Notes under the pieces: model-generated
Told to the model about the DNA's origin: nothing
Database searches by the model: none
Seen by the model: only the letters and a program-made list of their open reading frames with translations
In this document: piece after piece, positions 2,678 to 42,225 of the stretch
Numbering within the stretch: position 1 is the stretch's first letter
Layout of the letters: every line of letters begins with the position of its first letter
From: an uncultured Gammaproteobacteria bacterium
GTDB taxonomy: Bacteria > Patescibacteriota > Microgenomatia > UBA12405
Assembly (NCBI GenBank): GCA_964503465.1
Contig: CAZCYZ010000001.1
Coordinates: 17,583-81,582, forward strand
Reading direction: 5' to 3'
Length of the DNA: 64,000 nucleotides
Made by a program: the position numbers and the translations under genes

Positions 2678-3773
2678 TCTTTCTTGTCTGTTCGTCCACA
2701 TACTCAAAATTCACTGCTACGTATTTAACCTTCTTTTTTAACTGCGCCAGGTATTTCCTTCCCATATTTTCCGGCCATTCAATACACGCCACCGTCTTTT
2801 CTCCAAACTGTCCCAAAAAATTTATTTCTTCCAATTCTCTCTCGCTCGAGATTCGATACAAATCAAAATGCAAAAACTTCAACAATTCCCCTTGCCCTGT
2901 CAAGGGAAAGGGGTTAGGGGTTAGGGTTTTATATTCATTAAAAATCACAAAAGTCGGACTGACAATCTTCTCTTTTACTCCTAGCATTTTCCCCAGCCCT
3001 CTAGCAAACACCGTTTTACCGCACCCCAAGTCCCCACTCAACCCAAAAACTAACGGTTTAACTTGTGTCCTGTCAAGGGAAAGGTGGTACGAAGTACCAA
3101 AGGGTTTCTTTAATAAGAAACCCGCCACCTTTTCCGTCTCTCTTACCGACTTTGATATCAAGCTTTTACTATCCCCAGTTGTCAAATCTCCTCGTCTTAA
3201 CACCTCTATTTCTGGCTTGGTCGTATCAATTACCGTTGATGGTTTGTTTCTTGAAAGTTTGCCCACATCAACTATCAAGTCAATCATCCCTCTCTTCTTT
3301 TTTGACAAAGTTCTTAGAAAACTTTTTATCGAATAATGCGGTGTTCTACCTGATAGGTTAGCCGAAGTTGCCGTTATTGGCCCATCTAATACCCCAACCA
3401 AATCACTAATATATTTATTGTCCGGAATTCGTATCCCCAATGTTCCATTTTCTGCTTCTATTCCTTTGGTTACTCGGTGTTTTCCCTTCGATACTACCGT
3501 AAACGGACCAGGTAATAAATTCTTGTATATTTGTTCTGCACTTTCGGACAGCTCAACAAATTCTTGAGCCATCTTTTTATCCGCCACTGCTATCGATATC
3601 GCCTTTCCCGTCCACCTGTTTTTAAATGCCAACAGTTTATCAACTGCCAATTTATTAGTCGGGTCAACTGCCAATATATACACCGTGTCACTTGGGTACA
3701 CCACCAATCCACCGTCTTTAATCACCCTCATTGCCTGCTGAATATTTTCGTCCATTGTTTCCGATTTTACCAT
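2649..3773 (-). CDS. Fusion protein: L-threonylcarbamoyladenylate synthase TsaC/YrdC-Sua5 domain (N-terminal) plus TsaE/YjeE P-loop ATPase (C-terminal)
   Basis: N-terminal half has YrdC motifs (VVYPSDTVYILAVD, ATSANLSGRTP). C-terminal half has the TsaE Walker A GDLGCGKT, SPTFVIFNEY and HFDLYRI. It contains two in-frame copies of the dispersed repeat. Confidence 0.75.
   Translation of the reverse strand: MVKSETMDENIQQAMRVIKDGGLVVYPSDTVYILAVDPTNKLAVDKLLAFKNRWTGKAISIAVADKKMAQEFVELSESAEQIYKNLLPGPFTVVSKGKHRVTKGIEAENGTLGIRIPDNKYISDLVGVLDGPITATSANLSGRTPHYSIKSFLRTLSKKKRGMIDLIVDVGKLSRNKPSTVIDTTKPEIEVLRRGDLTTGDSKSLISKSVRETEKVAGFLLKKPFGTSYHLSLDRTQVKPLVFGLSGDLGCGKTVFARGLGKMLGVKEKIVSPTFVIFNEYKTLTPNPFPLTGQGELLKFLHFDLYRISSERELEEINFLGQFGEKTVACIEWPENMGRKYLAQLKKKVKYVAVNFEYVDEQTRKISFCLRTEN
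2888..2930. repeat. Dispersed repeat, copy 2, in-frame inside the TsaE domain
   Basis: Sequence ccccttgccctgtcaagggaaaggggttaggggttagggtttt. It encodes the extra peptide TLTPNPFPLTGQGEL between the conserved NEY and HFDLYRI motifs of TsaE. Confidence 0.65.
3068..3106. repeat. Dispersed repeat, copy 3, at the TsaC/TsaE domain junction
   Basis: Sequence tcctgtcaagggaaaggtggtacgaagtaccaaagggtt. It has the same cctgtcaagggaaagg core, in a different reading frame (encodes HLSLDRT), followed by a tggtac-gaa-gtacca hairpin. Confidence 0.55.
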
Positions 3774-11005: not shown

Positions 11006-11082
11006 TGGTGGGTGTGCATGGATTCGAACCATGGACCCTCGACTTATAAGATCGATGCTCTAACCAACTGAGCTACACACCC
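11006..11082 (-). tRNA. tRNA-Ile (anticodon UAU) with encoded CCA
   Basis: Reverse complement GGGTGTG-TA-GCTC-AGTTGGTTA-GAGC-A-TCGAT-CTTATAA-GTCGA-GGGTC-CATGG-TTCGAAT-CCATG-CACACCC-A-CCA is a full cloverleaf. Confidence 0.7.
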
Positions 11083-11091
11083 AAATTTTAA

Positions 11092-11127
11092 ATGGACCCC
11101 TCCGACGTCACGTCGGAGTGCTCTAAC
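11092..11127. repeat. 36-bp perfect direct repeat, copy B
   Basis: Identical to 10705..10740. Confidence 0.8.
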
Positions 11128-11144
11128 CACCAAGCTACATGCCC
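11093..11144 (-). pseudogene. Partial tRNA (5' portion: acceptor 5' strand, D-arm, palindromic anticodon-arm position) with its own TATAAT promoter
   Basis: Reverse complement gggcatg-ta-gctt-ggtggtta-gagc-ac-TCCGACGTGACGTCGGA-ggggtccat, then diverges. Upstream (minus strand) is ttgatataattcc 13 nt before the tRNA 5' end. Confidence 0.5.
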
Positions 11145-11260
11145 AATACTATGGAATTATATCAATTGTATCCTTCTGGTAGTATAAGTCGGGTGACTTA
11201 ATCCAAGAGAACTTTTATCGCCGTAGGCGAAATATAAATAAAGCGGATAATCGGAACAAA

Positions 11261-11304
11261 GTGACGATATAAGATCGGTGCTCTAACCACCAAGCTACAT
11301 GCCC
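11261..11304 (-). pseudogene. Chimeric partial tRNA (same 5' acceptor/D-arm as 11093..11144 fused to an Ile-like cgatcttata anticodon region) with a duplicated promoter
   Basis: Reverse complement gggcatgtagcttggtggttagagcac-cgatcttatatcgtcac. The upstream flank ttggtataattcc duplicates the promoter-like flank of 11093..11144. Confidence 0.45.
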
Positions 11305-11325
11305 AAAATTAAGGAATTATACCAA

Positions 11326-11580
11326 TTATCGACCTACAATAGCTCTCAGCACTCGCTTTTCCGCTGTAATTAAATTTCCCCCTTCCAACTCCTGCATATC
11401 AGTTCTTACTGTCTGCCATGCTTCTGTCCTGGCTTCCCTCGCCCCCCAGAACTTTCTGGTTCGTTCTGCAGGTTGTCCTATCACTTTTCCATTCTTGTCA
11501 ACTCCTTTGGCGGCCCTGCTCAACTGTTCATTAACTGCCCGAAACTTAGACAGATCACTCTCTAACTTATCACCAGGCAT
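11326..11580 (-). CDS. Hypothetical protein
   Basis: 84-aa ORF between the tRNA fragments and tRNA(CAU). No recognisable motif. Confidence 0.3.
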   Translation of the reverse strand: MPGDKLESDLSKFRAVNEQLSRAAKGVDKNGKVIGQPAERTRKFWGAREARTEAWQTVRTDMQELEGGNLITAEKRVLRAIVGR

Positions 11581-11607
11581 ATTAGTTATAAAAAATTAAC
11601 TTTTAAG

Positions 11608-11681
11608 TAGCAGGGGCGGGATTTGAACCCGCGACCCCAGCGTTATGAATGCTGTGCTCTAACCAACTGAGCTACCCTGCC
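11608..11681 (-). tRNA. tRNA with CAU anticodon (Met, or Ile2 if lysidinylated)
   Basis: Reverse complement GGCAGGG-TA-GCTC-AGTTGGTTA-GAGC-A-CAGCA-TTCATAA-CGCTG-GGGTC-GCGGG-TTCAAAT-CCCGC-CCCTGCT-A. Confidence 0.7.
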
Positions 11682-11759
11682 AAGAATACGAAATTATATC
11701 AACTCACAGCCTTCTTGACTATTTAATCCGTCCCTATGATAAAATTCCCTGAATCTACC

Positions 11760-11829
11760 TGCGGGGTAGTGTACGGCTGCACGTGAGGCTCATAATCTCA
11801 CAGACCTGGTTCAACTCCAGGCCCCGCAA
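11760..11829 (+). tRNA. tRNA with CAU anticodon, 70 nt (Met/fMet candidate), U1-A72 first pair and short D-loop
   Basis: tgcgggg-ta-gtgt-acggct-gcac-g-tgagg-CTCATAA-tctca-caga-cctgg-ttcaact-ccagg-ccccgca-a. It is convergent with the other CAU tRNA. Confidence 0.55.
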
Positions 11830-25467: not shown

Positions 25468-26553
25468 ATGTCTTCCTCCCTCGACTTTACCAAGATTCGC
25501 CAGCATCTGGTTACTCTCGCCAAAAAGCTTCATTATCTTACCCACGACGAAGTTCTTAAATTAGTCCCCGAGCCGGAAAAATATATTGACGATGTTGACA
25601 ATCTTTTTGATTATCTTTTTGACAAGGGTATCGATGTTTTCGATAAAGTTGAGTCTCAAGAGCTCATTATCAGTGCTGGGTCAAAGACCAATAGTGCCGA
25701 TCTCATGGCTCTTCTAAGCCAAAAAAATAGTGTCGACTCTGTTCGGATGTATCTTAAGGAAATTGGCAAAATCGACCTGTTAACTTTTGCCGAAGAAGTT
25801 TCTTTAGCCCAATCAATCGAACGAGGTTCACCTTCAGCCCGCGAGCAACTCATTAACGCCAATCTTCGTTTGGTTGTCTCTATTGCCAAAAAATATATTG
25901 GCCGTGGTCTAACTTTTCTTGATCTAGTCCAGGAAGGTAATCAAGGCCTAATGCGAGCCGTCGAGAAATTTGATTGGAAAAGGGGATTTAAGTTCTCCAC
26001 TTATGCGACCTGGTGGATTCGTCAGGCTATTACTCGAGCTATCGCCGATCAGGCCAAAACCATCCGTATCCCAGTTCACATGGTCGAGACCATCAATAAA
26101 GTCTACAAAGCCACCAGGGCCCTAACTCAGCGTCTTGGTCACGAACCTAGCACCGATCAAATTGCCCAAGAAGTTGGCATCACTATCGATAAGGTTGAGG
26201 AAATTTATCGTATTTCTCAAGATACTACTTCACTAGCTACCCCGGTGGGGGACGACGAAGATTCATTTCTAGGTGATTTTATCGAAGACACCACCCAACC
26301 TTCTCCCTATGATGAGACCAGCAAAGAGCTACTTCGCGAATCAATCGAGGAAGTACTCGGGAGTCTTGACGAACGTGAAGCCAAAGTGCTAGCTCTTCGT
26401 TTTGGACTTCTGGGCGAAACCCCCAAAACTCTTGAAGAAGTTGGCAAAATTTTTAATGTCACTCGTGAACGTATTCGTCAAATCGAAGCCAAGGCTCTTC
26501 GTAAACTCCGTCATCCCAGCCGTCGCAAGAAATTACAAGACTATCTCGAATAA
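25468..26553 (+). CDS. rpoD: RNA polymerase sigma-70 factor RpoD
   Basis: Regions 2-4: [58 protein letters not shown]. Classic dnaG-rpoD gene order. Confidence 0.9.
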
Positions 26554-26973
26554 TTCCCCATTTCCAAATTCCTTTTTCTCCCCGCTTATCACGTAAGTTA
26601 TCATTGCCAGTACTATCTTGTGGCTAATAATTAGTATCGTTTCGCTGTCTTTATGGTCATGTTTCACATCGTCTACAAACCTGGTCACTCTCCTCTTTAC
26701 CCCTTCGAACTTCTCTTTCTTTGTTTTTGGTGCTATCAATTGGCACATATAAATCGACTGACTATCGTCCTTAACCCTCAAGATTTCGTCTAATGTTTGT
26801 TCACATCTATTAGTCGGCGAGCAATAAATCACCCCAATTTGCTTCCTGATTAATTTTTTTGCCGTTTCTACCGCCTGTCCCACCCCCTGGGCCGTTAGGT
26901 TATTTTCTTCAGCCCTTACCTTATAACCTCTGTTTCTGGCACTTTCTCCGTGTCTTACCAATATTAATTTCAT
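26533..26973 (-). CDS. Histidine phosphatase family protein (phosphoglycerate mutase-like)
   Basis: LVRHGES catalytic RHG motif and a conserved His in IISHKIVL. Confidence 0.6.
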
Positions 26974-27026
26974 CCCAAATTATACCATTGCCAATTTTGG
27001 TCAGCACGTCTACAATTTGCTTAATT

Positions 27027-27377
27027 ATGAAAATCAAATTCACCGTCCTGTCCGCTCTATTTGTTGTTCTTTGTGCTTTGGTTATAAAGTTTAGTCCTCA
27101 AATCGTCACCGCCACTACCGCTCTGTGGTATGACACTGGTACCAAAATCTATAGTCTATCGGCCAACAAAGTTGGTGTCGGTACTTCCAATCCTACCCAG
27201 CAACTTGAAATCAATGGTGGCGTTCGTCTCAATACTAGTACCGCCAGACCCTCTTGCACCACTTCCGTTCGCGGCACCCTTTGGTTTACTTACGGGGTTG
27301 GTACTTCTAAGGATTCTCTCTATCTTTGCGCTCAAGCCGCCGGAACTACTGTTCCTAGCTGGAAAACTATCTACTAG
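27027..27377 (+). CDS. Small secreted hypothetical protein
   Basis: Signal-peptide-like N-terminus MKIKFTVLSALFVVLCALV. Motif VGVGTSNPTQQLEINGGV, as seen in fibre-like repeat proteins. Confidence 0.35.
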   Translation: MKIKFTVLSALFVVLCALVIKFSPQIVTATTALWYDTGTKIYSLSANKVGVGTSNPTQQLEINGGVRLNTSTARPSCTTSVRGTLWFTYGVGTSKDSLYLCAQAAGTTVPSWKTIY

Positions 27378-27991
27378 CAAGACTGCAGTTCTATTCCTAG
27401 TTTTTTTAATTCCTCACCAAACTGTCCAAAGTTTTCGTACACAAAAGCGTTTATTCCCAACTCCTTTGCTCCGGACAACTTATCTTCGCTGTCATCAGAG
27501 TAAACGATTTCATTCGCTTCACATCCAGATCTTTTTATCAATTCCTCAAAAATTCCTTTTTCTGGTTTTAATACCCCAGTCTCGTAAGAGAAAACTGCCG
27601 TGTCAAAATTACTTAGAAATCTAAATCTTTTGTCCAGCCCATCTACTCTGGCTGGAAAATTATTCGAACAGGCTAATATTCTATAGTTATTGTTTTTTAG
27701 CTTATTTATCATTCCTATCACTTCTTCATTCACCTCATACCCCTCAATTAATAGTTCAACTACTTTTTCCCAATTTCCATCTATTTTCCATTCGCTAATG
27801 GCCCATTTCCAAAACTGTTCGTCACTCCAACGACCAGTTTTGTATAGGCTATTCATCTCCTCACTCTTCAAAAACACTCGTCTTGTCTCATCCTCACCCA
27901 CCCCATATTTTTCACTTAAATTTTTTATAAAATTCTCCTTTCCATTTAGAAAATACACCCCATCCAGGTCAAAGGTTATGGCTTTAATCAT
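27374..27991 (-). CDS. HAD-superfamily hydrolase
   Basis: MIKAITFDLDGV motif I (DxDG), and a later GINAFVYENFGQ region. Confidence 0.65.
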   Translation of the reverse strand: MIKAITFDLDGVYFLNGKENFIKNLSEKYGVGEDETRRVFLKSEEMNSLYKTGRWSDEQFWKWAISEWKIDGNWEKVVELLIEGYEVNEEVIGMINKLKNNNYRILACSNNFPARVDGLDKRFRFLSNFDTAVFSYETGVLKPEKGIFEELIKRSGCEANEIVYSDDSEDKLSGAKELGINAFVYENFGQFGEELKKLGIELQSC

Positions 27992-28012
27992 GGGCTATTC
28001 TACCACTGAGAC

Positions 28013-28279
28013 TCATTGAACTATGTCACTTTCAAATACCACTCCGGGTACTGTTATCTGTCCTATTATGTCAATAGTCTCCAGTCTGTGCCCCGTTCCC
28101 CTGGTGGTTGGGCTTCGTGGGTGATTCAGATGGCTGTTCACCGCCATTATTATCGACGCCCTGTCAGTTAGTTTCCCATAGTCATCAGCGATTACTCTTT
28201 GACAAGTAACACAATGTATTCTTCTTTGTGGTCTCCGTTCTTTGTTTTCATCTCCCATAGGTCGTATATTAGCAGACAA
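28013..28279 (-). CDS. Hypothetical protein (possible JAMM/RadC-like remnant)
   Basis: 88-aa ORF. AVNSHLNHPRSPTT weakly resembles the HxHP..S JAMM motif. Confidence 0.2.
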   Translation of the reverse strand: MSANIRPMGDENKERRPQRRIHCVTCQRVIADDYGKLTDRASIIMAVNSHLNHPRSPTTRGTGHRLETIDIIGQITVPGVVFESDIVQ

Positions 28280-28410
28280 ATGTACAAATTAGTGGCTTTT
28301 GGGTCAGTGTTATTCTATAATCAATCCTAACTTTTGCACCTTTTACAACCCACATTACTTCAGTTTTAGTTTAAAACTTCAAATTTTAAATTAAAAATTG
28401 AATAAATATT

Positions 28411-28462
28411 CCCCTGTAGCTCTCCGCCAGCTGGCGGACGGTAGAGGCTCGCCTGTTAAAAT
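28411..28462 (+). pseudogene. Partial tRNA-Asn (5' portion to anticodon loop) with a 16-bp palindrome inserted in the D-loop
   Basis: cccctgtagctc-TCCGCCAGCTGGCGGA-cggtagag-g-ctcgcctgttaa, then diverges. The intact tRNA-Asn is 310 bp downstream. Confidence 0.5.
28416..28444. repeat. 29-bp perfect direct repeat, left copy, containing the 16-bp perfect palindrome TCCGCCAGCTGGCGGA
   Basis: gtagctctccgccagctggcggacggtag is identical to 28718..28746. Confidence 0.85.
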
Positions 28463-28467
28463 TAAGT

Positions 28468-28746
28468 GTGTATATCGTTTACGCGATTTACCACCCAAAA
28501 TCAGGAAAAATCTATATAGGTCAAACAGTCGACCTAGGTAATAGATTAAGGGAACATAACGATCCTAACTGCCAGCGCCATTTATATACCAAGAGGATCG
28601 GGATCGGCTGGGAAGTTCTTTATAAGGAAACTCAGCCGACCAGACAGCTTGCCTTAAAGCGAGAAAAACAGTTAAAAAGTTATCAAGGCAGATTGTTCAT
28701 TAAAAAACACATTACAGGTAGCTCTCCGCCAGCTGGCGGACGGTAG
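28468..28746 (+). CDS. GIY-YIG nuclease family protein (UPF0213/YhbQ-like, 92 aa, GTG start)
   Basis: VYIVYAIYHPKSGKIYIGQTVDLGNRLREHN matches GIY-YIG with the conserved Arg and His-Asn. The C-terminal 9 codons are encoded by the right direct repeat, and the stop is the last triplet of that repeat. Confidence 0.65.
   Translation: MYIVYAIYHPKSGKIYIGQTVDLGNRLREHNDPNCQRHLYTKRIGIGWEVLYKETQPTRQLALKREKQLKSYQGRLFIKKHITGSSPPAGGR
28718..28746. repeat. 29-bp perfect direct repeat, right copy
   Basis: Identical to 28416..28444. It is followed by a degenerate anticodon-stem-like sequence ggcaccgcctgtaat. Confidence 0.85.
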
Positions 28747-28772
28747 GGCACCGCCTGTAATACTCAATACAT

Positions 28773-28845
28773 TCCCCTGTAGCTCAGTCGGTAGAGCGCT
28801 CGCCTGTTAAGCGATCGGTCCGTGGTTCGAGTCCACGCGGGGGAG
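28773..28845 (+). tRNA. tRNA-Asn (anticodon GUU)
   Basis: tcccctg-ta-gctc-agtcggta-gagc-g-ctcgc-CTGTTAA-gcgat-cggtc-cgtgg-ttcgagt-ccacg-cggggga-g is a complete cloverleaf. No encoded CCA. Confidence 0.8.
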
Positions 28846-28947
28846 CAAGCAAAATATATCCTAAAGATACGTAACAAATGTTTCTATGGTATGGCAAGAG
28901 TGACAAGTATATAATGTGGTTAATCAATAATTAAATTACTCAAATCC

Positions 28948-29973
28948 ATGTCTCCTCAAAAAGAAAAAATAGTTACCTCAGAACCGGATCTTCCAATTGA
29001 TCGTTTACGTTTAGCCTTCCGCCTTCAAGAAAGAGTCGAAGAAATCGACCAGGCTTTAGAAATAGCGGCACGGCCAAAGGATGTTTTAGGATTCGATGGT
29101 GCCCAGCCCGCCACCTTAAACGAGTTTCATCAACTTCGTGAAGCATATCAAGCGAGGTTGGATCAATCTCTCGCAAGTATGGATCCTTCTACTCGCGAGC
29201 AGTATGAGGCTATTTCTACGGCACGTCAGACTGCCAGAGAGGAAGAAGATAGTAGGGTACAAGCCTATCTAAAAGACCATTTTGGTGTCGATTGGGTCGA
29301 AACAGGTAGAACGCGGTTTGAGTGGAAACGTGAACATCCCCTTAATGTTGATACCGAATTGAATCCTGGTCATACCTGGGAGCAATATGAGGTAACACCA
29401 GAAGTCATGGCTGAAAAGGCTAGATTGTCTATGGAATTGTCACTCGTCTTATATGTCAGCCAACTTGCCACCGATCCCAGAGATCGTGTTGCATTTGATT
29501 TGAGCCAAGAAGCCTCTCAGGATTTACAGCGTATTTCTAAATGCCTAATGATACAAACGAATCGCATGCTGACGACTAATGGTGAGCAAAGAGACAGAAT
29601 CAGGCGGTTTGAAGATGTTGCCTGGAACTTTCGCAGAGAGACTGATGGGTTTTATCGGGCATTCGAACAAATCGCCGGAGATTCTATTTTCGAACCATAC
29701 AAGAAAGAGGAACCTCCAACAGAAGGCACCAAAATTGAGGAAGAACCTGCAGAAGTTAAATTCTATACCAGAGAATGTCCTCACTGTCAGGTTCAGTTTC
29801 ATAGCCGAAAAGCCGAGGGAAAATGCTACAATTGCACCCTTGACGAAATTACCCACGGGAATCCTCCCGAGGAAGGTGACTTTAACTCTGCCGGCATTAT
29901 ATCCGGTACACTCACAGATGAAGAGTGGAAAAATCTTCAAGCCGATCTGGCTGCAGTTGAGCTGGGTAGATAG
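28948..29973 (+). CDS. Hypothetical protein with C-terminal zinc-ribbon (CPHC...CYNC)
   Basis: 341-aa ORF. Higher GC than the flanking genome. C-terminal CxxC...CxxC. Confidence 0.4.
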   Translation: MSPQKEKIVTSEPDLPIDRLRLAFRLQERVEEIDQALEIAARPKDVLGFDGAQPATLNEFHQLREAYQARLDQSLASMDPSTREQYEAISTARQTAREEEDSRVQAYLKDHFGVDWVETGRTRFEWKREHPLNVDTELNPGHTWEQYEVTPEVMAEKARLSMELSLVLYVSQLATDPRDRVAFDLSQEASQDLQRISKCLMIQTNRMLTTNGEQRDRIRRFEDVAWNFRRETDGFYRAFEQIAGDSIFEPYKKEEPPTEGTKIEEEPAEVKFYTRECPHCQVQFHSRKAEGKCYNCTLDEITHGNPPEEGDFNSAGIISGTLTDEEWKNLQADLAAVELGR

Positions 29974-30036
29974 TTCTGCTCCCATTCTTCCATCCAAATG
30001 CTATTCTATCGGTGAGTTTTTGTGGATATAACTGTT

Positions 30037-30070
30037 TCGAATGTTCTCCATCTCGTGGAGCATTGTGACC
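30037..30070. promoter_or_regulatory. Conserved palindromic upstream motif, copy 1 (tttcgaatgttctccatctcgtggagcatt)
   Basis: Near-inverted repeat AATGTTCTCCA / TGGAGCATT about 100 bp upstream of the 30141 start. A second copy lies at 30615..30648. Confidence 0.45.
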
Positions 30071-30140
30071 TCATATTTATAAATAAATCTGTGGCGATAT
30101 ATGTTTGAATTGAAGTTGCTAAACAGTTTATAATCACCTT

Positions 30141-30590
30141 ATGAAAGATGAATCATTAGTAATTACTGATTGGGATATGGATTATGCCGATCTCTCGCAG
30201 AGGGATGAGTATGAGGAACTTAAAGCCCAAATTACTGAAGTCTACGGTACACCAGAACGTGATTCAGTAGATTGGCAAGCGTGTCTTGATGCCACGCTAC
30301 TTGCCGTTTACCGTTCAGAAGTATCTCGTTGTCAAAGTCATGTTGTATCACCACCTGGATCAGAGACGGAAGAAGTCAGGCCGGCTGTTTTGGAGTCACA
30401 TCTTCGCATCGCTGAACAAAGATTAGCGATACACCTGGATCGTGTTGATCAAAGATGCTTGCAACCAGAATATGATACCGCTTTCGAACTTGCTGGCAAA
30501 AAATTAGACAAAGTATCCGAAGGTAATCCATACGCTGATATGTTTGTTCTTGCTCACTTAGGTGCTGGGTCGGTTCAGTTGGTAAGATAA
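30141..30590 (+). CDS. Hypothetical protein
   Basis: 149-aa ORF. TATAAT hexamer ends 6 nt before the ATG (tataatcaccttATG). Confidence 0.4.
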   Translation: MKDESLVITDWDMDYADLSQRDEYEELKAQITEVYGTPERDSVDWQACLDATLLAVYRSEVSRCQSHVVSPPGSETEEVRPAVLESHLRIAEQRLAIHLDRVDQRCLQPEYDTAFELAGKKLDKVSEGNPYADMFVLAHLGAGSVQLVR

Positions 30591-30614
30591 TCTAGAATTT
30601 GGAGAGCAGTAATT

Positions 30615-30648
30615 TTTCGAATGTTCTTCGTTCCGTAGAGCATTAAGT
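30615..30648. promoter_or_regulatory. Conserved upstream motif, copy 2 (tttcgaatgttcttcgttccgtagagcatt)
   Basis: Shares TTTCGAATGTTCT...GAGCATT with copy 1. Lies ~120 bp upstream of the 30769 start. Confidence 0.45.
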
Positions 30649-30768
30649 AACACCAAAAATTCTAAAATCATTCCACTCCTCGAGCCAGCAAAATATTTCC
30701 GAAGAATACGTACATTAACTCATGACACATAGTTTAGTAGAAGTGTTGTTCACTGCTATAATCATCCT

Positions 30769-31602
30769 ATGAACATAACCGCCGACACCAAAGTCATTGC
30801 TCGTCTTCATACCAAACCCAGTCCCAGAGGTCTTAATATCTATAATCCATTCTTTCAAGAATCTAATCTCAATGCTGTCTATCTACTCTTTTTTAACCCT
30901 GACCCGGCTCCTCTTATTTCAGCCATGCGTGGGTTTAATATCGCCGGAGCCATCACAGCCGGATTTGAGTCGGATGACAGACTTCCATCTCTTTTGGATG
31001 AAGTCGATGACGTTTCTGCCTACACGGGTCGAGTCGGGTTCATCACTAATAATGGTGGGAAATTAATCGGATCATCACAAGGTGGTCAGGGATTACTAAG
31101 ATCTATCCTCAAACATGGCCATATTGAAAATAAGAAACTTGTTATAGTCGGTTCTGGCAATATCGCCAAAGGATTGTTGTTTAACATAAAAAAACAGTTT
31201 CCTGATCCTCCCGAAGTAGTTCTAGTTAACCGCACAATTGAAAAGGCGCTATCCATTCAAAGAGATTTTTCATTTGTCACTTCCACCAAGTCAGTCACTG
31301 ATCTGTCTACCGAAACTGGTGATATTTTAGTTAATGCTACTGATATTGGTGGCAGTCAAGCTGACGATGTTTACACCGAATCAATCGTTGGCAACTTTCA
31401 GACGATAGCCGATGTCACTTTTGAAACCGAGAACACTAATCTGGTTAATCTGGCTAAGAAATTGAATAAACAATTCTCAACCGGCTGGGATATGTTTGCT
31501 TATCAAGGCCAGGTTATTCTCGAAAGTATCTTTCATACAGGCATTGATATTGGTTCGCTCAGAAAGCATGTTGTAAGTGGATTATCAGAAGTTGTTTCTT
31601 AG
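30769..31602 (+). CDS. Shikimate/quinate 5-dehydrogenase-like protein (AroE family)
   Basis: N-terminal substrate-binding domain resembles the AroE family. NAD(P)-binding region has VIVGSGNIAKG (Rossmann glycine motif) and VNRT...DILVNATDIG. Confidence 0.55.
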   Translation: MNITADTKVIARLHTKPSPRGLNIYNPFFQESNLNAVYLLFFNPDPAPLISAMRGFNIAGAITAGFESDDRLPSLLDEVDDVSAYTGRVGFITNNGGKLIGSSQGGQGLLRSILKHGHIENKKLVIVGSGNIAKGLLFNIKKQFPDPPEVVLVNRTIEKALSIQRDFSFVTSTKSVTDLSTETGDILVNATDIGGSQADDVYTESIVGNFQTIADVTFETENTNLVNLAKKLNKQFSTGWDMFAYQGQVILESIFHTGIDIGSLRKHVVSGLSEVVS

Positions 31603-31644
31603 TTTATGCCCGTGTAATTTAGGCATTCGATAGCTAATCAACAT

Positions 31645-32757
31645 ATGTCCGAGAATCCTCAGTCAATAGTCAGTCGAGAAAAACCACCAGTTGACCTATT
31701 GGCCGACGAAGTTGTCAGATTAAGAGAATCACTCGAAAGACGTGGCGAACAATTGGGTTTTTCCAACATCCTAGCTTTGTCTTATGTTGTCGAACTTTAT
31801 TCTAGCGTTAATGGTCAACAATCCCTAGTGGAGTGGTTTCGTGACCCAAAATCTGACGAAGAAATTTTTACTCTTCAACAATCAGTGGACTTAGGACATG
31901 TACTCGAAAATGCCAATAGGTTATCGGCCATTCATGGGATAACTCCTCCTCCGTTATCTACCGATCTTACTGTTCCCCAAGATCAATTGGCTATTCCCAG
32001 GACACCCGCCCAAGTTGATCAAGAGATTCTCGATGCTACTGAAACCTTACCCGGTGAACGTCTAATTACCCTTTTTCGCTATGTTGATACCGTTGGTTGG
32101 AGAGATGACACCCAGTCCATGGAGCCAGATGAGATTAGATCATTTATGGATGAACCGTCTAATCAGGTAATCAATCACGCTCGAGGCTTACGATTTCCCG
32201 TGGCAAGTATTGAGGACGCTCGAGGCATTAGACATGAATCGTTATTTGCTCTTAGCCAGCTAATTACATATCCAAGATTTGTTTTGGATAGAACTGATGA
32301 TGTTGTTTATTCCGGATTAGTCAATGAACCAAGACACCTTGACATCCTTCGTGAACACTTACTCCTCTCGGAAAGGGAGTCACTGGCTCGCTCTGTTCAA
32401 AGGGCTGACAAAGTTGTTGCTTTTACCTCCGCATCAGTTGGTAGTCAAGGTCTATGTAATTGGGGATTTTTTTGTATTGAAATGCAGGTCCCAGAGAGAT
32501 TAATTCTCAATGTTCGAGACTTGTGTATTCAGGGCGATGAAGTTATGGGTGACAACGATGGAGTTGATCCGGACACACGACAGAGACTATCACTCTCAAT
32601 TCATTCCTACCCACCTCCACTAGAAACTTATCAAAGTGTTGGCGGTATTCACCTAGACGAAATGGCTGTTCTTGGGGGTATTAGGCGAGAGTGGGTAAGG
32701 TCTGTCATCGACATTAGGGACCAATCAATTGTGTGGCAGAAATCGTCAGACAAGTAA
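31645..32757 (+). CDS. Hypothetical protein
   Basis: 370-aa ORF with no recognised motif. Confidence 0.4.
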   Translation: MSENPQSIVSREKPPVDLLADEVVRLRESLERRGEQLGFSNILALSYVVELYSSVNGQQSLVEWFRDPKSDEEIFTLQQSVDLGHVLENANRLSAIHGITPPPLSTDLTVPQDQLAIPRTPAQVDQEILDATETLPGERLITLFRYVDTVGWRDDTQSMEPDEIRSFMDEPSNQVINHARGLRFPVASIEDARGIRHESLFALSQLITYPRFVLDRTDDVVYSGLVNEPRHLDILREHLLLSERESLARSVQRADKVVAFTSASVGSQGLCNWGFFCIEMQVPERLILNVRDLCIQGDEVMGDNDGVDPDTRQRLSLSIHSYPPPLETYQSVGGIHLDEMAVLGGIRREWVRSVIDIRDQSIVWQKSSDK

Positions 32758-32842
32758 TTTTCTATCTACCCCTTGCTGTGTCGTTGTTCGTCCAAATATA
32801 ATACGATTATAGCCTATAACATGATATAATCCCATTCATATT

Positions 32843-33484
32843 ATGCCCGTAACTATTGAACAAGTTGGCCATGCTTGGGATGGTCTGACTGCCGAGGATC
32901 ATGCTTATGGTCAAATTGTCGCCACTGGTATGGCCGCTATCCTTGAATCGCGTGGATATGGTCATGATGCCGGGCCAATTTGGCAAACCATTGGTGTCAG
33001 TCAGGAAGTTCAACTTAGACTTGACCCACAGGAGACATTTACTAGGGCAATTGAGTTAGTTATGTTGAATGATGGTGGCGATCCCGACTCTCAACAGTTT
33101 GTTCAATGGCTTCAGGGCAATGGCCTTCAACAACTTACCGATCCTCGATTGACGCCTTACCTTGAACCTTATCTTGCTACTTCTGACAGCACCCCGTTTG
33201 TTAATCGACTTCTAAGTTTTGTCAATCATCCCATTCCTTATGATCAAATATCTACCAAGCACGACCTTGGCTATTTTCCTCAATGTTACCTAACCTTTAT
33301 TTCTGTCCTACTCGCTTCACGTCTTAGTGGTGCTGGCAACACCGAGTTGATTACTCGCCTTAGGGAAGCATCATCAGAATTACTCACTACTCCTGACTTT
33401 CAAAGAATTGTTGGTCTCTATGCTACTATTACCGACACTCGGCAATTTGCCGAACAATTATCAATCTCTACATTTAATGCCTAA
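32843..33484 (+). CDS. Hypothetical protein
   Basis: 213-aa ORF. A TATAAT lies 14 nt upstream of the ATG. Confidence 0.4.
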   Translation: MPVTIEQVGHAWDGLTAEDHAYGQIVATGMAAILESRGYGHDAGPIWQTIGVSQEVQLRLDPQETFTRAIELVMLNDGGDPDSQQFVQWLQGNGLQQLTDPRLTPYLEPYLATSDSTPFVNRLLSFVNHPIPYDQISTKHDLGYFPQCYLTFISVLLASRLSGAGNTELITRLREASSELLTTPDFQRIVGLYATITDTRQFAEQLSISTFNA

Positions 33485-34010
33485 AGATCGTTTATATGGC
33501 CTTCCCGTACGTACTAAGGTCGTCAAAATAACTCAAGGTTGGCACGGTCCGTTTAGTCATCAGGATCTCGGCGGTGGTCGAACAGATATGACCTTTGCTG
33601 TTGATTTTAGTGCCGAAGAAGATACCCCGGTTGTAGCCGCCAGAGCTGGTAAACCCAGAATTGTTGTCGATCATCACCAAAGCCACTACGAAGGTGATGA
33701 CCCAAAAATAGGTTTAGCCGTTAACACCACCAATCTGGTGATTATCGAGCATCGAGATGGCACCGAAGTGGAATATACAGTCTATTCTCACCTTAAGCCA
33801 GGCAGTGTGCCAGAAAAAGTTAAAAACGGACAAATGGTTGATGAGGGAGAACAAATAGGTCTATCTGGAAAAAGTGGTTGGGTTCCTGTGCCCCATGTTC
33901 ATTTCCAGGTTTTGTCTCGTAAATCTCCAGATCAAAGATTAAGAAGTCGCCCAGTACGTTTTAGGGGTTATAACGGTCCACTGGAAGACGATAAGATTAG
34001 AGGAAAATAA
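33480..34010 (+). CDS. M23-family (lysostaphin-like) metallopeptidase domain protein (start uncertain; the annotated ORF starts at 33408)
   Basis: HQDLGGGRTDMTFAVDF, GEQIGLSGKSGWVPVPHVHFQV. HxxxD and HxH are typical of the M23 family. Confidence 0.55.
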   Translation, partial: PKDRLYGLPVRTKVVKITQGWHGPFSHQDLGGGRTDMTFAVDFSAEEDTPVVAARAGKPRIVVDHHQSHYEGDDPKIGLAVNTTNLVIIEHRDGTEVEYTVYSHLKPGSVPEKVKNGQMVDEGEQIGLSGKSGWVPVPHVHFQVLSRKSPDQRLRSRPVRFRGYNGPLEDDKIRGK

Positions 34011-34044
34011 CATCCTTATAACATTTCAAATGCTATAATTACCC

Positions 34045-34350
34045 ATGACCATTGAAGCTACTAAACGCCAAATCGGTATATCTAGGGTCTTTGATGTCTT
34101 AGCCAAAGTCCATATTGAAAAACATTTACCAGGAGAGGTTCCGGTACTACGTCAACTACAGTGGGAAAACCCAGGGTCTGCCGATGCTAGATTGTTAAGT
34201 ACAGTTATTACCTTAAGACAACAAGGCAAAATGCCCGATGCTCGCACTATGTGGGCTGATGCAGAGAGAATGTACGATCTGCCTGTCGATAGACAAGGAG
34301 ATGCTTATCTTGCTTACCACCAGAGAGTATTTAGCGATCAATCAAAATAA
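34045..34350 (+). CDS. Hypothetical protein
   Basis: 101-aa ORF. TATAAT ends 6 nt before the ATG. Confidence 0.35.
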   Translation: MTIEATKRQIGISRVFDVLAKVHIEKHLPGEVPVLRQLQWENPGSADARLLSTVITLRQQGKMPDARTMWADAERMYDLPVDRQGDAYLAYHQRVFSDQSK

Positions 34351-34355
34351 TAATT

Positions 34356-34844
34356 ATGGCAAAAACTGAATTTGCATCTGAACTACGTCGATTAACTGAG
34401 AAACATGGACCAAAACTTGGCCTAAAGCCGAATGAAGTTGTTGGTGCGGTTATGGTTTGGCCGTCTAAAGCGGACATGCGACGATTTCAGGAAGGCATAC
34501 CGGAAGAATTATTAGCCCTCAAGGAGCTTAAGGCCGTTCAAGAAACTGGACAAGTCGTTGCTGAATTAAACGCTGGCAATATCCCACTTACTCGAGAACA
34601 AATTCAAAGGCTATCGCCACGAAGAGGAGTTGGAATTCGTATTCTTTGGAGTCTAAGTACTGGCGAGGATACTGCCACAATAAATGAAGAATTGGATGGT
34701 GGTACTAGACGAGGTATCAGAACTCGAGTTCTCACTGATACAGAAAAACAATCAGTCGGTATTCTCGATGACGTTGTTACCGTCACTACCCTTCGATTAC
34801 GTCCTGATAGTCCTATTCTTAGAAAAGTCAAACCAGCATCTTAA
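34356..34844 (+). CDS. Hypothetical protein
   Basis: 162-aa ORF, 5 nt after the previous stop. Confidence 0.35.
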   Translation: MAKTEFASELRRLTEKHGPKLGLKPNEVVGAVMVWPSKADMRRFQEGIPEELLALKELKAVQETGQVVAELNAGNIPLTREQIQRLSPRRGVGIRILWSLSTGEDTATINEELDGGTRRGIRTRVLTDTEKQSVGILDDVVTVTTLRLRPDSPILRKVKPAS

Positions 34845-34958
34845 AAATTTCATCCACACAATGACTGAAAAAACCCAATGGTTATTTGATAGAAGTAAAT
34901 TAATGCGTGGTGCATCTCCAGTTACTCTAGAGGTCGAACTTACCCCCCAGAACTGGCT

Positions 34959-35240
34959 TTGTTAGAAGAAATTCGGGCCCTCGAAGATAGTCCTGAAGTT
35001 GGCCACAGTGTTGCTTCGGGTTCTGGATATATGAGGCAGTATGAAACAGAAAAACGAGCCCCCTTTGGTTATCGTTTGACCAGACCAAGGGGAGAGGTTT
35101 TGGCTGACGCCAGAGCCAGTCGTGATTATCTTCGTCAAAATCTCGCGGGAATTGATAGACAGTCATCTGAATGTTCTACTCAAGTTAGGGGAATCATCTC
35201 CAGACTAAACAAAGTGCTTGGCGAGGAAGAAGATAAATAA
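34959..35240 (+). CDS. Hypothetical protein
   Basis: 93-aa ORF. Weak. Confidence 0.25.
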   Translation: MLEEIRALEDSPEVGHSVASGSGYMRQYETEKRAPFGYRLTRPRGEVLADARASRDYLRQNLAGIDRQSSECSTQVRGIISRLNKVLGEEEDK

Positions 35241-35301
35241 TCCGTCACCCACTTCCTCATACCTGTACTATTCATTCGGGGGAGCCCAGTATAATATACT
35301 C

Positions 35302-35727
35302 ATGAAACGTGTCATCTCTGCCGGTGGAATAATCACCAAAATAGAAAACGATCAGCTCAAGATTTGTCTTGTCCGATTAAGACCTCCAATGAAGGGTTAT
35401 GTTTTTCCCAAAGGTCATGTTGAATTGGGTGAAACTTATGAACAAACTGCCCTCCGAGAGGTGGCCGAAGAAACCGGATTGTCTAATTTAACTATCAAAC
35501 AGAAGTTGGGCGTTGTTCAAAGACAATCAACTGAAAACGACGGCACTCAAGTGACTAAGAATATTCATCTTTATTTGATGACTACCGATAGTTTTCAGCA
35601 TAACCAATCAGACGAAAGATATGAATGGTTTACTATTGACGAGGCTCTCAAAGCTCTTAATTTTATTGAAGAAAAAGAGTTCTTATTCAAAAACAGAGAT
35701 CAAATTTGCGACTCCGATCAGCTCTAA
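35302..35727 (+). CDS. NUDIX hydrolase
   Basis: Nudix box GHVELGETYEQTALREVAEETGL (GX5EX7REUXEEXGU). The start was taken at MKRV, with a TATAAT ending 8 nt upstream. Confidence 0.7.
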   Translation: MKRVISAGGIITKIENDQLKICLVRLRPPMKGYVFPKGHVELGETYEQTALREVAEETGLSNLTIKQKLGVVQRQSTENDGTQVTKNIHLYLMTTDSFQHNQSDERYEWFTIDEALKALNFIEEKEFLFKNRDQICDSDQL

Positions 35728-35750
35728 ATCTCCACCACTCCCCGAGCACC

Positions 35751-35787
35751 AAAAATCCCCTCCATCACGGAGGAGATTTTAGTTTTT
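35751..35787. terminator. Bidirectional intrinsic terminator
   Basis: aaaaa-tcccctcc-atcac-ggaggaga-tttt, lying between convergent genes. Confidence 0.45.
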
Positions 35788-35799
35788 GTAAACAGAACT

Positions 35800-36162
35800 T
35801 TACTGGCTGTTGTTCATTCCACAACCTCTACCACTCCCATTTCCTCGCCCCATTCCATATTTGGCTCTAAAAGCATTCAATAGGGTAGGGTCACCTTTTT
35901 GAGCCGTCAGTTGAGCTGTCGCAAACTCTTTGAAGTTAGATTCGTTGACGAATCGAGTGGCACCACGTCCGGCCATATTGGCGACCCAGGCTTTGTAATC
36001 ACCTTTTTGAAAGGCAGTCACGTTGACAGTGTGTCTGGCTTCTGTGTAATTAGGGCCACGAACTGTGGCATCACCACGATAAGCAAGAACCGGGGCAAAT
36101 GATTTAACAGCTACTAAGCCCAGTGCTATCGCGGCGATACCAAGAGCAATTTGAGTTTTCAT
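35800..36162 (-). CDS. Small secreted hypothetical protein
   Basis: Signal-peptide-like N-terminus MKTQIALGIAAIALGLVAV. Gly/Arg-rich C-terminus. Confidence 0.35.
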   Translation of the reverse strand: MKTQIALGIAAIALGLVAVKSFAPVLAYRGDATVRGPNYTEARHTVNVTAFQKGDYKAWVANMAGRGATRFVNESNFKEFATAQLTAQKGDPTLLNAFRAKYGMGRGNGSGRGCGMNNSQ

Positions 36163-36222
36163 ATAAATTGATTTGAATTATTAATATGACTTGCGCAGTC
36201 TATTAGTAATACAAACCAGGCC

Positions 36223-36900
36223 CTAGTTTTCTTTCATCATGTTTTGCCCCATGCCATTCCATGGTCTAACTTCATCTATAGAAAAACTGTTTGACCCAGT
36301 TTGGGTGCCGATTAGTTTTATCTCTTCACCAACCACCACCTGAACTCTACCTCTGATTAATGGATTTTGGCCACTAATATTCCATACTTTATTGTTAAAA
36401 TCCTTGATCTGAAAATTATTTGGACCAGTGATATTAATAATTTCACCAGACAAATAACCTTGTTCTGGATTGTTCCATACCATCATTCTCATTGGTACCA
36501 CTTGACGATACAAGGAGGACCGCAATTCTAGACTTCGATCCACTCTACTCGCGATACCAAGCTTAAAAATGGCTCCACCAATAATTAATCCAACAATCAT
36601 GATAAAAGTAATTACTTGCCACTTTTGGAAACGATAAGCCCTTTTCGTTTTTTCAAAAAATAGAAAAGATAATCCCAAAAATAATATGGCAATAAATAGC
36701 CACGGGTATGGCGTAATAATATTATCTGCCAGACCAAACCACGACACTCCTGTCCCTAAAACCAATAATCCTAGGCTAACAATAAAACCCAGCCACAAGC
36801 TCCATTTCTTCATCACAAACTCCCACCTGGGAATCGGCCTCAATTGTTGTTGGTTGATAAGCTTTAGTGATTTATCGCTAATATTTGTTTTCCTTTTCAT
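36223..36900 (-). CDS. Membrane protein, putative anti-sigma factor (start uncertain; the annotated ORF runs to 37002)
   Basis: Lies immediately downstream of, and overlapping, the ECF sigma gene. Short cytoplasmic N-terminus, then TM helices and an extracytoplasmic domain. Confidence 0.4.
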   Translation of the reverse strand: MKRKTNISDKSLKLINQQQLRPIPRWEFVMKKWSLWLGFIVSLGLLVLGTGVSWFGLADNIITPYPWLFIAILFLGLSFLFFEKTKRAYRFQKWQVITFIMIVGLIIGGAIFKLGIASRVDRSLELRSSLYRQVVPMRMMVWNNPEQGYLSGEIINITGPNNFQIKDFNNKVWNISGQNPLIRGRVQVVVGEEIKLIGTQTGSNSFSIDEVRPWNGMGQNMMKEN

Positions 36901-37453
36901 AGATTTCCTTAAATTGTATTTTTGCCCGGGAGAGTAGTGTCGCCACTGTTCCCATTGGCTTTTGTAAAATATCGCTAATTTCTGAATAGTCTTTATCTTC
37001 AAAGAATTTCAAGACAATAACCTCTTTATAATCTGGTTTTAATTTCTCTATTATTGCTTTGACGTAATCGTTAAAATGTTTCGTTATCGTTTCCTTTTCA
37101 ATATTGGTATCGGCTACCAACCAATCGACAAACTCATTATCATTTTCGATATCAATTTTCACCGACTGCTTATTCTTCTTCATAAAATTCACCGCTTGGT
37201 TGTGAACTATTCGATACAGCCAGCTGCTAAATTTCAAATTACAGTCACAATCATTTAGGTGTTGGTAAGCTTTAATAAATGATTCTTGGACAATATCAGC
37301 AATGTCATCATCCTTCAAATACGTAAATCTACGGACATAGTTCGCCAGTTTCTCTTCATATCTTCTCATTAGGCAATAAAAATACCGACTGTCGTCTATT
37401 GACAACACCACTAATTCCTTATCTTCTAAACCGTAGCATTGTTCATCAATCAT
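36878..37453 (-). CDS. ECF-type RNA polymerase sigma factor (sigma-70 family)
   Basis: Region 2 DIVQESFIKAYQHL...WLYRIVHNQAVNFMK. Region 4 YSEISDILQKPMGTVATLLSRAK. Confidence 0.75.
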   Translation of the reverse strand: MIDEQCYGLEDKELVVLSIDDSRYFYCLMRRYEEKLANYVRRFTYLKDDDIADIVQESFIKAYQHLNDCDCNLKFSSWLYRIVHNQAVNFMKKNKQSVKIDIENDNEFVDWLVADTNIEKETITKHFNDYVKAIIEKLKPDYKEVIVLKFFEDKDYSEISDILQKPMGTVATLLSRAKIQFKEIYEKENKY

Positions 37454-41597: not shown

Positions 41598-42044
41598 ATG
41601 TATAACATACATTATTCTTGTATGAACAGAAAACAATATAAACAACTTCGGATAATTATTGCTTTCTTTGTCGGTATTATTGTTTCCCTTGCTCTTGTTC
41701 GTGACAGTTATCTTTTAGCCACCGCCGGCGTTCTTACTGGTGTTGTTTTTATGCTGTTAGTCCGTTCTCGGGCTAACATTAGAACTGACGAACGGGAACT
41801 AGTAGTTCAGGAAAAGGCCGCTCGGTCGACTTACGCTATTTTTACTCCCACTATTGGTATTGCTGCCTTTTTGTTACTACTTCCTTCTCGGGGCGGTCTT
41901 TCTGTTTTTAGTCGGGGGGAGTGGCTTTATCTTGAATCTTTGGGTATGGTCTTTGCCTATCTATCTTTATTCCTCATCACTGTATATGCCATTTCCTATC
42001 ATTTTTTCAACCAAAAATTTGGCGGTGATAGCGATGAAAAATAA
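41598..42044 (+). CDS. Small membrane protein (DUF2178-like) paired with the downstream XRE regulator
   Basis: Four TM helices. Its stop overlaps the start of the HTH gene (ATGAAAAATAA). Confidence 0.35.
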   Translation: MYNIHYSCMNRKQYKQLRIIIAFFVGIIVSLALVRDSYLLATAGVLTGVVFMLLVRSRANIRTDERELVVQEKAARSTYAIFTPTIGIAAFLLLLPSRGGLSVFSRGEWLYLESLGMVFAYLSLFLITVYAISYHFFNQKFGGDSDEK

Positions 42045-42225
42045 GCTTAGGGTTTTTCGAGCAATGCATGATCTAACTCAAGAACAATTAGCCGACAAAA
42101 TTGGCATTAGCCGCCAAACTGTCATCGCTATTGAGGCCGACAAATACCTGCCATCTCTGGGTCTGGCTTTTAAAATTGCTCAATTTTTTAAAGTCAAGAT
42201 TGAGGATATTTTTATCAATCAATAG
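42034..42225 (+). CDS. XRE-family helix-turn-helix transcriptional regulator (63 aa)
   Basis: LRVFRAMHDLTQEQLADKIGISRQTVIAIE is the canonical Cro/C1 HTH. Confidence 0.7.
   Translation: MKNKLRVFRAMHDLTQEQLADKIGISRQTVIAIEADKYLPSLGLAFKIAQFFKVKIEDIFINQ

Follow-up and report, generated by a model that had tools for sequence, protein, structure and literature searches.

A strain-private pair of 30-bp motifs, tentatively operator-like, beside predicted leaderless promoters in a tRNA-Asn island of a Saccharibacteria-like genome

A small block of genes beside a tRNA-Asn gene contains two spacers that share a palindrome-like motif, and in each spacer the motif is followed by a gene with a near-identical TATAAT-ATG leader. 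The first-pass annotation of this DNA took the two features together, as a common operator at a conserved distance from a matched pair of promoters. The locus therefore raises the question of whether the motif and the leaders form such a unit and, if not, what the motif is. We addressed this question within the 64-kb stretch of DNA that contains the locus (the window), in public sequence collections, and in the literature. The features concerned are the following.

28948-29973, + strand: gene for a 341-aa protein, upstream of M1, with a conserved CxxC...CxxC motif at its C-terminus
30035-30064, + strand: motif copy M1, TTTCGAATGTTCT-CCATCTCGTG-GAGCATT
30129-30143, + strand: putative leaderless promoter of the 149-aa ORFan gene (TATAAT, 6 nt, ATG)
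30141-30590, + strand: ORFan gene for a 149-aa protein, between M1 and M2, with no homolog but itself
30615-30644, + strand: motif copy M2, TTTCGAATGTTCT-TCGTTCCGTA-GAGCATT
30757-30771, + strand: putative leaderless promoter of the 277-aa shikimate-dehydrogenase-like gene (TGcTATAAT, 6 nt, ATG)
30769-31602, + strand: shikimate/quinate-dehydrogenase-like gene (family match) for a 277-aa protein, downstream of M2

The resemblance between the two motif copies is real and non-random. Their full sequences, TTTCGAATGTTCTCCATCTCGTGGAGCATT for M1 and TTTCGAATGTTCTTCGTTCCGTAGAGCATT for M2, are identical at 25 of 30 positions and consist of an exact 13-mer (TTTCGAATGTTCT), 10 nt that vary, and an exact 7-mer (GAGCATT). 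This score of 25 is the best ungapped 30-mer match between the two spacers, and 300 shuffles gave a mean of 17.7 and a maximum of 21. The score of the local alignment of M1 and M2 was reached in 0 of 1000 shuffles, and blastn against the window gives the pair an E value of 0.001. The duplication described by the first-pass annotation is thus genuine, with the boundaries corrected from 30037-30070 and 30615-30648 to 30035-30064 and 30615-30644. The inverted-repeat core that had been described is likewise present, but it is imperfect: AATGTTCT and AGAGCATT match over 8 bp with one T.G position, in the layout AATGTTCT-N9-(A/G)GAGCATT. All five differences between M1 and M2 fall inside the central 10 of the 30 positions (P = 0.0018 under random placement, a post hoc test). 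The other 20 positions, made up of the 13-nt left block and the 7-nt right block that contain the 7-8-bp inverted arms, are identical, and the central 10 nt are 50% identical. The similarity of the two copies ends abruptly at the edges of the 30 nt, and the flanks are unalignable.

The leaders are as alike as had been claimed. TATAATCACCTTATGAA (30129-30145) and TATAATCATCCTATGAA (30757-30773) are identical at 15 of 17 positions; the six nucleotides between TATAAT and ATG are CACCTT for the 149-aa gene and CATCCT for the 277-aa gene, with no Shine-Dalgarno sequence in either. The promoter of the 149-aa gene also has a TTGAAT -35-like hexamer 18 nt upstream. The notion that such leaders are special to these two genes, however, did not survive comparison with the rest of the window. 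For this comparison, 59 gene starts were compiled from the ORF list of the window, each with 40-60 nt of upstream sequence. In these 59 upstream regions, -10-like hexamers form a sharp peak of 25 hexamers ending 5-6 nt before the start codon, and a GGAG, GAGG, or AGGA core at -18 to -4 is found in only 6 of the 59 genes. The leaderless layout is common to about two dozen genes of the window, and over the same 17-nt frame other promoter pairs reach 13-14 matches, with 15/17 at the top of a continuous distribution. Orthologs of the 277-aa gene, 63-82% identical and located in unrelated gene neighborhoods (contigs L002, L004, and L007), carry TATAATCA-N4/5-ATG. Their leaders read TATAATCATTTCATG, TATAATCAGCTTATG, and TATAATCAACTATG, and the same layout is found at many other genes of these contigs. 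Since the layout is genome-wide and is inherited in the 277-aa orthologs, the leaders do not link the two genes. We attribute their near-identity to a shared consensus and, for the 277-aa gene, to inheritance with the gene as well.

Both TATAAT-N6-ATG segments are very probably ordinary sigma-70-type -10 boxes from which transcription would begin at the A of the start codon, since the six nucleotides that follow TATAAT place this A at the expected +1 position. The proposal that initiation would occur at or next to the start codon is thereby supported at the sequence level by the TATAAT plus 6 nt, the genome-wide -10 peak, and the 277-aa orthologs. It is equally probable that this layout serves a large share of the first genes in this Saccharibacteria-like genome and its relatives. 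In the 'group C' genomes of GeneMarkS-2, the Pribnow box lies 6-8 nt from gene starts (PMC6028130). Both genes examined here have a -10 hexamer (TANNNT) about 5-8 nt before the start, with no Shine-Dalgarno sequence in the stretch that separates the two. The histogram peak and the related contigs show this pattern across the genome for the first genes of operons. The promoters resemble those of the group C Actinobacteria and Deinococcus-Thermus (PMC6028130) in the Pribnow box 5-8 nt before first-gene starts, in the absence of a Shine-Dalgarno sequence, and in the genome-wide pattern; they differ in that the host here is Patescibacteria/Saccharibacteria-like and in that the start sites here are predicted from sequence. 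Our literature search found no paper describing this layout for a Patescibacteria/Saccharibacteria-like lineage. For annotation, gene calling in this genome and its relatives should use a leaderless model, in which TATAAT 5-6 nt before ATG or GTG would be a mark of true starts and operon heads, not a gene-specific signal.

The spacing between motif and gene is not conserved. The distance had been put at about 100-120 bp, and only the first copy fits: from motif start to ATG there are 106 nt for M1 (ATG at 30141) and 154 nt for M2 (ATG at 30769), and from motif end to ATG there are 77 nt and 125 nt, respectively. Measured from the motif centers, the start codons are about 89 and 137 nt downstream; these distances differ by 48 bp, which does not correspond to whole helical turns. 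On its other side, M1 starts 61 nt past the stop of the 341-aa gene (29973) and M2 starts 24 nt past the stop of the 149-aa gene (30590). The two copies are 580 bp apart.

A search for further copies, which the first-pass annotation had proposed, turned up no other good copy in the 64-kb window and, in public collections, none in a comparable setting. In the window, no other site has fewer than four mismatches over the 20 conserved positions. The third-best site on either strand is the following.

34024-34053, + strand: possible degenerate third copy of the motif, TTTCAAATGCTATAATTACCCATGACCATT, matching 16 of the 20 conserved positions (4 mismatches)

This site lies in an island spacer in the same orientation as M1 and M2, 13 nt past the stop of an M23 peptidase gene, and overlaps the -10 box and ATG of a 101-aa gene. 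By our own estimate, about 0.15 sites with 16/20 matches are expected by chance in the whole window, and the site may be a degenerate third copy, an assignment that we regard as uncertain. The next matches have six mismatches; one of them is at 35165-35194.

Beyond the window, the exact motif pattern, which has 19 specified bases, gave 0 matches in 185,579 species-representative genomes and 0 matches in viral contigs. Three matches were found in JGI metagenome contigs, each of about 35% GC and with no flanking sequence in common with the window; the one that we checked falls within coding sequence, on a low-GC contig where a TetR-family gene is its neighbor. With a relaxed pattern, the 185k species genomes yielded 31 matches, compared with about 70 expected by chance according to our rough estimate. 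These matches are scattered across unrelated phyla (Acidobacteria, Bacteroidota, Planctomycetes, Proteobacteria, one archaeon, and others), with none in the Patescibacteria of this collection, and they are consistent with chance. The motif is absent upstream of the orthologs of the 277-aa gene, including one that is 82% identical, with only the -10 box in common with the M2 spacer, and it is absent downstream of the sole homolog of the 341-aa gene. With Rfam 15, the motif region had no match, a tRNA being the only hit in 27900-31700 even at E values up to 5, and at the gathering threshold the whole window yielded only tRNAs. Comparison of the island with phage records gave no match. As far as public sequence data show, the motif is private to this genome or strain.

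The genes around the motif belong to a block of about 7 kb that begins immediately after tRNA-Asn (28773-28846). In 2-kb bins, GC skew is about 0 at 28-36 kb and -0.2 to -0.3 in the flanks and the rest of the window, a contrast that marks the block at about 28000-36000 as compositionally foreign. Genes are mostly on the + strand both within 28000-36000 and outside it, despite the contrast in skew. An independent Logan assembly contig is identical to the window over 25879-36205 and breaks on both sides. The block also contains a second direct repeat, as follows.

28842-28873, + strand: repeat A, comprising the 3'-terminal 5 nt of tRNA-Asn and the 26 nt that follow
30682-30712, + strand: repeat A', in the M2 spacer, 37 bp to the right of M2

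A and A' are identical at 26 of 31 positions, a score that 0 of 1000 shuffles reached, and they bracket a 1.84-kb module that comprises the 341-aa gene, the 149-aa gene, and both motif copies. This repeat points to a history of insertion at the tRNA, and it may be a decayed att-like duplication left by such an insertion, with the integrase since lost. Immediately before the intact tRNA-Asn (28773-28846), an ORF for a 92-aa GIY-YIG nuclease (28468-28746) lies between two copies of the tRNA-Asn 5' half (about 28405-28465 and 28707-28767), each of which has a perfect 16-bp palindrome, TCCGCCAGCTGGCGGA, in place of the D-loop. Judged from its sequence, this region resembles an insertion of the homing-endonuclease type in which part of the tRNA gene was duplicated.

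Pfam and PHROGs assign a family to the M23 peptidase, a NUDIX hydrolase, and the shikimate-dehydrogenase-like protein of the block, but to most of its proteins they assign none. The 149-aa protein has no homolog other than itself among 5.8 billion proteins, and its AlphaFold2 model is uninformative (pLDDT 45). The 277-aa protein has many homologs, some of them named Saccharibacteria or Patescibacteria by their sources. The 341-aa protein has a single homolog among the 5.8 billion proteins, with 45% identity, in a Woesebacteria MAG (contig L012, 489-1508), and each of these two genes is directly downstream of a tRNA gene. The two proteins have in common a C-terminal CPxC...CYNC zinc-ribbon-like motif and the sequence ITHGxPPEEGDFN, and a tyrosine integrase is encoded about 700 bp beyond the homolog on L012. 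The same contig has a divergent tRNA-Met pair plus tRNA-Ile(TAT) (160-446 and 3463-3537), similar to the arrangement at 11006-11829 of the window, where a tRNA-Ile with anticodon TAT adjoins two oppositely oriented tRNA-Met(CAT) genes. Paralogy of the two upstream genes (341 aa and 149 aa) was considered as a cause of the repeated motif and rejected, with nothing significant in a BLASTP comparison.

The nearby HTH regulator that had been suggested as the partner of the motif did not emerge from the island, in whose proteins Pfam and PHROGs detected no HTH or other DNA-binding domain; most of these proteins are ORFans, and an unrecognized binder is possible among them. The nearest regulator candidates are an ECF sigma factor (36878-37453, - strand) and an XRE HTH protein (41854-42225). 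The ECF-type protein has the Sigma70_r2 and r4_2 domains. An ORF at 36223-37002 (- strand) overlaps its gene, has a weak Pfam match to DUF4131, and is possibly an anti-sigma factor; the pair lies just beyond the bidirectional terminator of the island at 35745-35790.

Three readings of the motif remain: an operator-like site, a hairpin in the 3' UTR of the upstream genes, and a neutral scar of rearrangement. We rank the operator-like reading first, with a probability of roughly 0.4; it holds that the 30-bp motif would be a strain-private cis element that a protein recognizes sequence-specifically on the DNA. Identity of the arms and flank, divergence at half of the 10-nt center, and unalignable flanks lead us to read the motif as a protein recognition site, and the TTTCG flank (5 nt), which is conserved in both copies and which the folds for the most part leave out of the stem, speaks for a recognition that reads the sequence and not the pairing alone. 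The pattern of dyad half-sites with a free spacer (0/20 against 5/10 differences, with one T.G) is that of a transcription-factor operator. The common operator originally proposed is favored by the identical arms and 5-nt flank around a diverged spacer; the distance to the promoter, however, is not uniform, given the 48-bp shift, and the motif has neither a further good copy in the 64 kb nor matches specific to the lineage in public collections, and it is not conserved at orthologous loci. The motif further differs from palindromic repressor operators in that its distance from the promoters is 77-125 bp, with no overlap, its left block is asymmetrically extended, and no cognate regulator was detected. 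The operator-like reading also has against it that there are two good copies only, that selection on the arms is argued from a post hoc pattern, that no DNA-binding domain was detected in the island, and that the strand-biased RNA fold fits an RNA hairpin at least as well.

If the motif is operator-like, it would occupy the long non-coding spacers of a small island, inserted beside tRNA-Asn, whose genes have promoters of their own, 77-125 bp upstream of promoters adjacent to the start codon and at no fixed distance or helical phase. Any regulation would then be exerted over a distance, for instance through pairing of the two sites across their 580-bp separation. A bound protein could alternatively form a roadblock to read-through from the upstream gene; promoter occlusion would not be its mode of action.

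It is possible, at a lower probability than we give the operator-like reading, that the motif acts in RNA, being transcribed in the 3' UTR of the upstream 341-aa and 149-aa genes as a modest stem-loop. Such a hairpin would either stall 3'-to-5' exonucleases or end or insulate the transcript against read-through, which would otherwise yield leadered copies of the next gene that lack a Shine-Dalgarno sequence. Both copies have the same orientation as the upstream gene and closely follow its stop codon (at 61 and 24 nt), the possible third copy follows the M23 peptidase stop at 13 nt, and the distance to the downstream start (21-154 nt) is more variable than that to the end of the upstream gene (13-61 nt). 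A conserved stem with a variable loop is also the pattern observed. The predicted RNA hairpins are more stable on the + strand (-8.6 kcal/mol for M1 and -8.1 kcal/mol for M2) than on the - strand (-5.8 and -3.2 kcal/mol), because the arm mismatch is a U.G pair on the + strand. The M2 fold has a z score of -3.0, but that of M1 does not exceed shuffled sequence in stability (z = -1.07), and the minimum-energy folds of M1 and M2 use different pairing registers. The copies show no compensatory changes, the conserved TTTCG flank is mostly unpaired, and no Rfam family matches; the stems are A/U-rich and lack a U-tract, so that they are not canonical intrinsic terminators. Less probable still, in our estimate, is that the motif is a functionless scar of local DNA rearrangement, with the tRNA-Asn island built up by successive insertions and duplications that left the motif pair behind, like A/A'. 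In favor of a scar, A/A' is an independent direct repeat (26/31) that brackets the same module and starts in the tRNA-Asn 3' end, the M2 spacer combines M2 and A' as a mosaic, the region stands apart in composition (GC skew near 0 compared to -0.2 to -0.3), the island genes are ORFans or close to it, the motif is confined to this genome, and tRNA-Asn is a visible hot spot with a GIY-YIG gene between tRNA-half copies. Neutral decay, however, should spread differences evenly, and those observed number 0 of 20 in the arms and flank and 5 of 10 in the spacer; moreover, the similarity is cut off sharply at the motif edges, and the conserved blocks are mutually inverted repeats, which a random leftover need not be.

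Two further explanations fare considerably worse. The direct copies could be att- or dif-like core sites for site-specific recombination around a cassette with the 149-aa gene, a reading suggested by inverted arms with a short spacer in direct orientation on either side of a small ORFan with its own promoter, and by the location in a tRNA-linked island. Like the cores of att, dif, and loxP, the motif has two inverted arms around a short center, and its direct copies flank a small module beside a tRNA gene. Tyrosine recombinases require identical overlap regions, while the arms may vary. The reverse is found here, with identical arms and 5 of 10 nt different in the center where an identical central overlap would be expected; in addition, the island proteins, searched with Pfam and PHROGs, include no match to an integrase or recombinase, Phage_integrase, or a resolvase, and no GC-skew switch marks a replication terminus or dif site. 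We therefore disfavor this explanation and regard it as very improbable. The least probable explanation, which we consider barely credible, is that the motif marks where a tiny leaderless ORF begins, or represents a decayed promoter, with an ATG inside the motif at 30041 and 30621. Each ATG is 7-8 nt after a -10-like hexamer (TATAAC or AGTAAT), an arrangement that resembles the leaderless pattern of the genome, but each hexamer is without one of the two most critical -10 bases, and the predicted peptides, MFSISWSIVTSYL and MFFVP, are conserved in neither length nor sequence.

We also compared the motif to known classes of elements. CIRCE, the operator of HrcA, has the form TTAGCACTC-N9-GAGTGCTAA and is found upstream of groE or dnaK. 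The motif is like CIRCE in its 8-9-bp inverted arms, its 9-bp spacer, and the combination of conserved arms with a free spacer; it differs in sequence, no chaperone genes flank it, and only the 8/9-N9-8/9 geometry is common to it and the CIRCE consensus. REP elements are present in tens to hundreds of copies per genome. Like REP palindromes and 3'-UTR stabilizer hairpins, the motif copies are imperfect palindromes after stops, in the orientation of the upstream gene and with no U-tract; unlike REP elements, there are only two, perhaps three, copies in 64 kb, all in one island. As with intrinsic terminators, both copies follow a stop codon shortly on the coding strand, but an intrinsic terminator was rejected, as the A/U-rich stems are followed by GUGACC... 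and AAGUAAC... where a GC-rich stem and U-run would be needed, and a consensus scan reports neither copy. A canonical terminator with a GC stem and T-run is found elsewhere in the window, at 35759-35773. An ECF-sigma promoter was rejected on inspection against the consensus, the spacing from GAAT to CGT being 11 nt and not 16-17, and on inspection none of the LexA/Cheo box, CodY, PadR, parS, dif, and CIRCE consensus sequences fits. Nothing about the motif departs from known kinds of elements.

A more specific version of the operator-like reading, which we think improbable, is that M1, M2, and the 34024-34053 site are the operator set of a candidate DNA-binding protein encoded in the tRNA-Asn island. 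One candidate binder would be the 341-aa zinc-ribbon protein, whose sole homolog is also encoded next to a tRNA gene, and the protein would control the leaderless promoters over a distance, either through a loop that joins the sites across 580 bp or as a block to read-through. If this were true, the set would provide a first cis-regulatory circuit to be defined for a mobile island in an ultra-small genome of the Patescibacteria. More generally, if the palindrome is a protein-binding site, it would be a rare handle on regulation in the Saccharibacteria, in which there are few recognizable regulators. As it stands, with two copies in one strain and no conservation, the palindrome matters locally only and offers little to build on.

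The match at 35165-35194, a possible degenerate copy with the left arm GAATGTTCT only, is in the same island and orientation as M1 and M2 and starts 137 nt before the start of the leaderless NUDIX gene at 35302. The spacers before the 213-aa and 101-aa genes (32800-32836 and 34016-34039) share CCT(T)ATAACAT...TATAAT and have a mutual inverted match of 24 nt at 79%. The spacer at 32800-32836 is itself partly self-complementary, with two TATAAT-like boxes on opposite strands.
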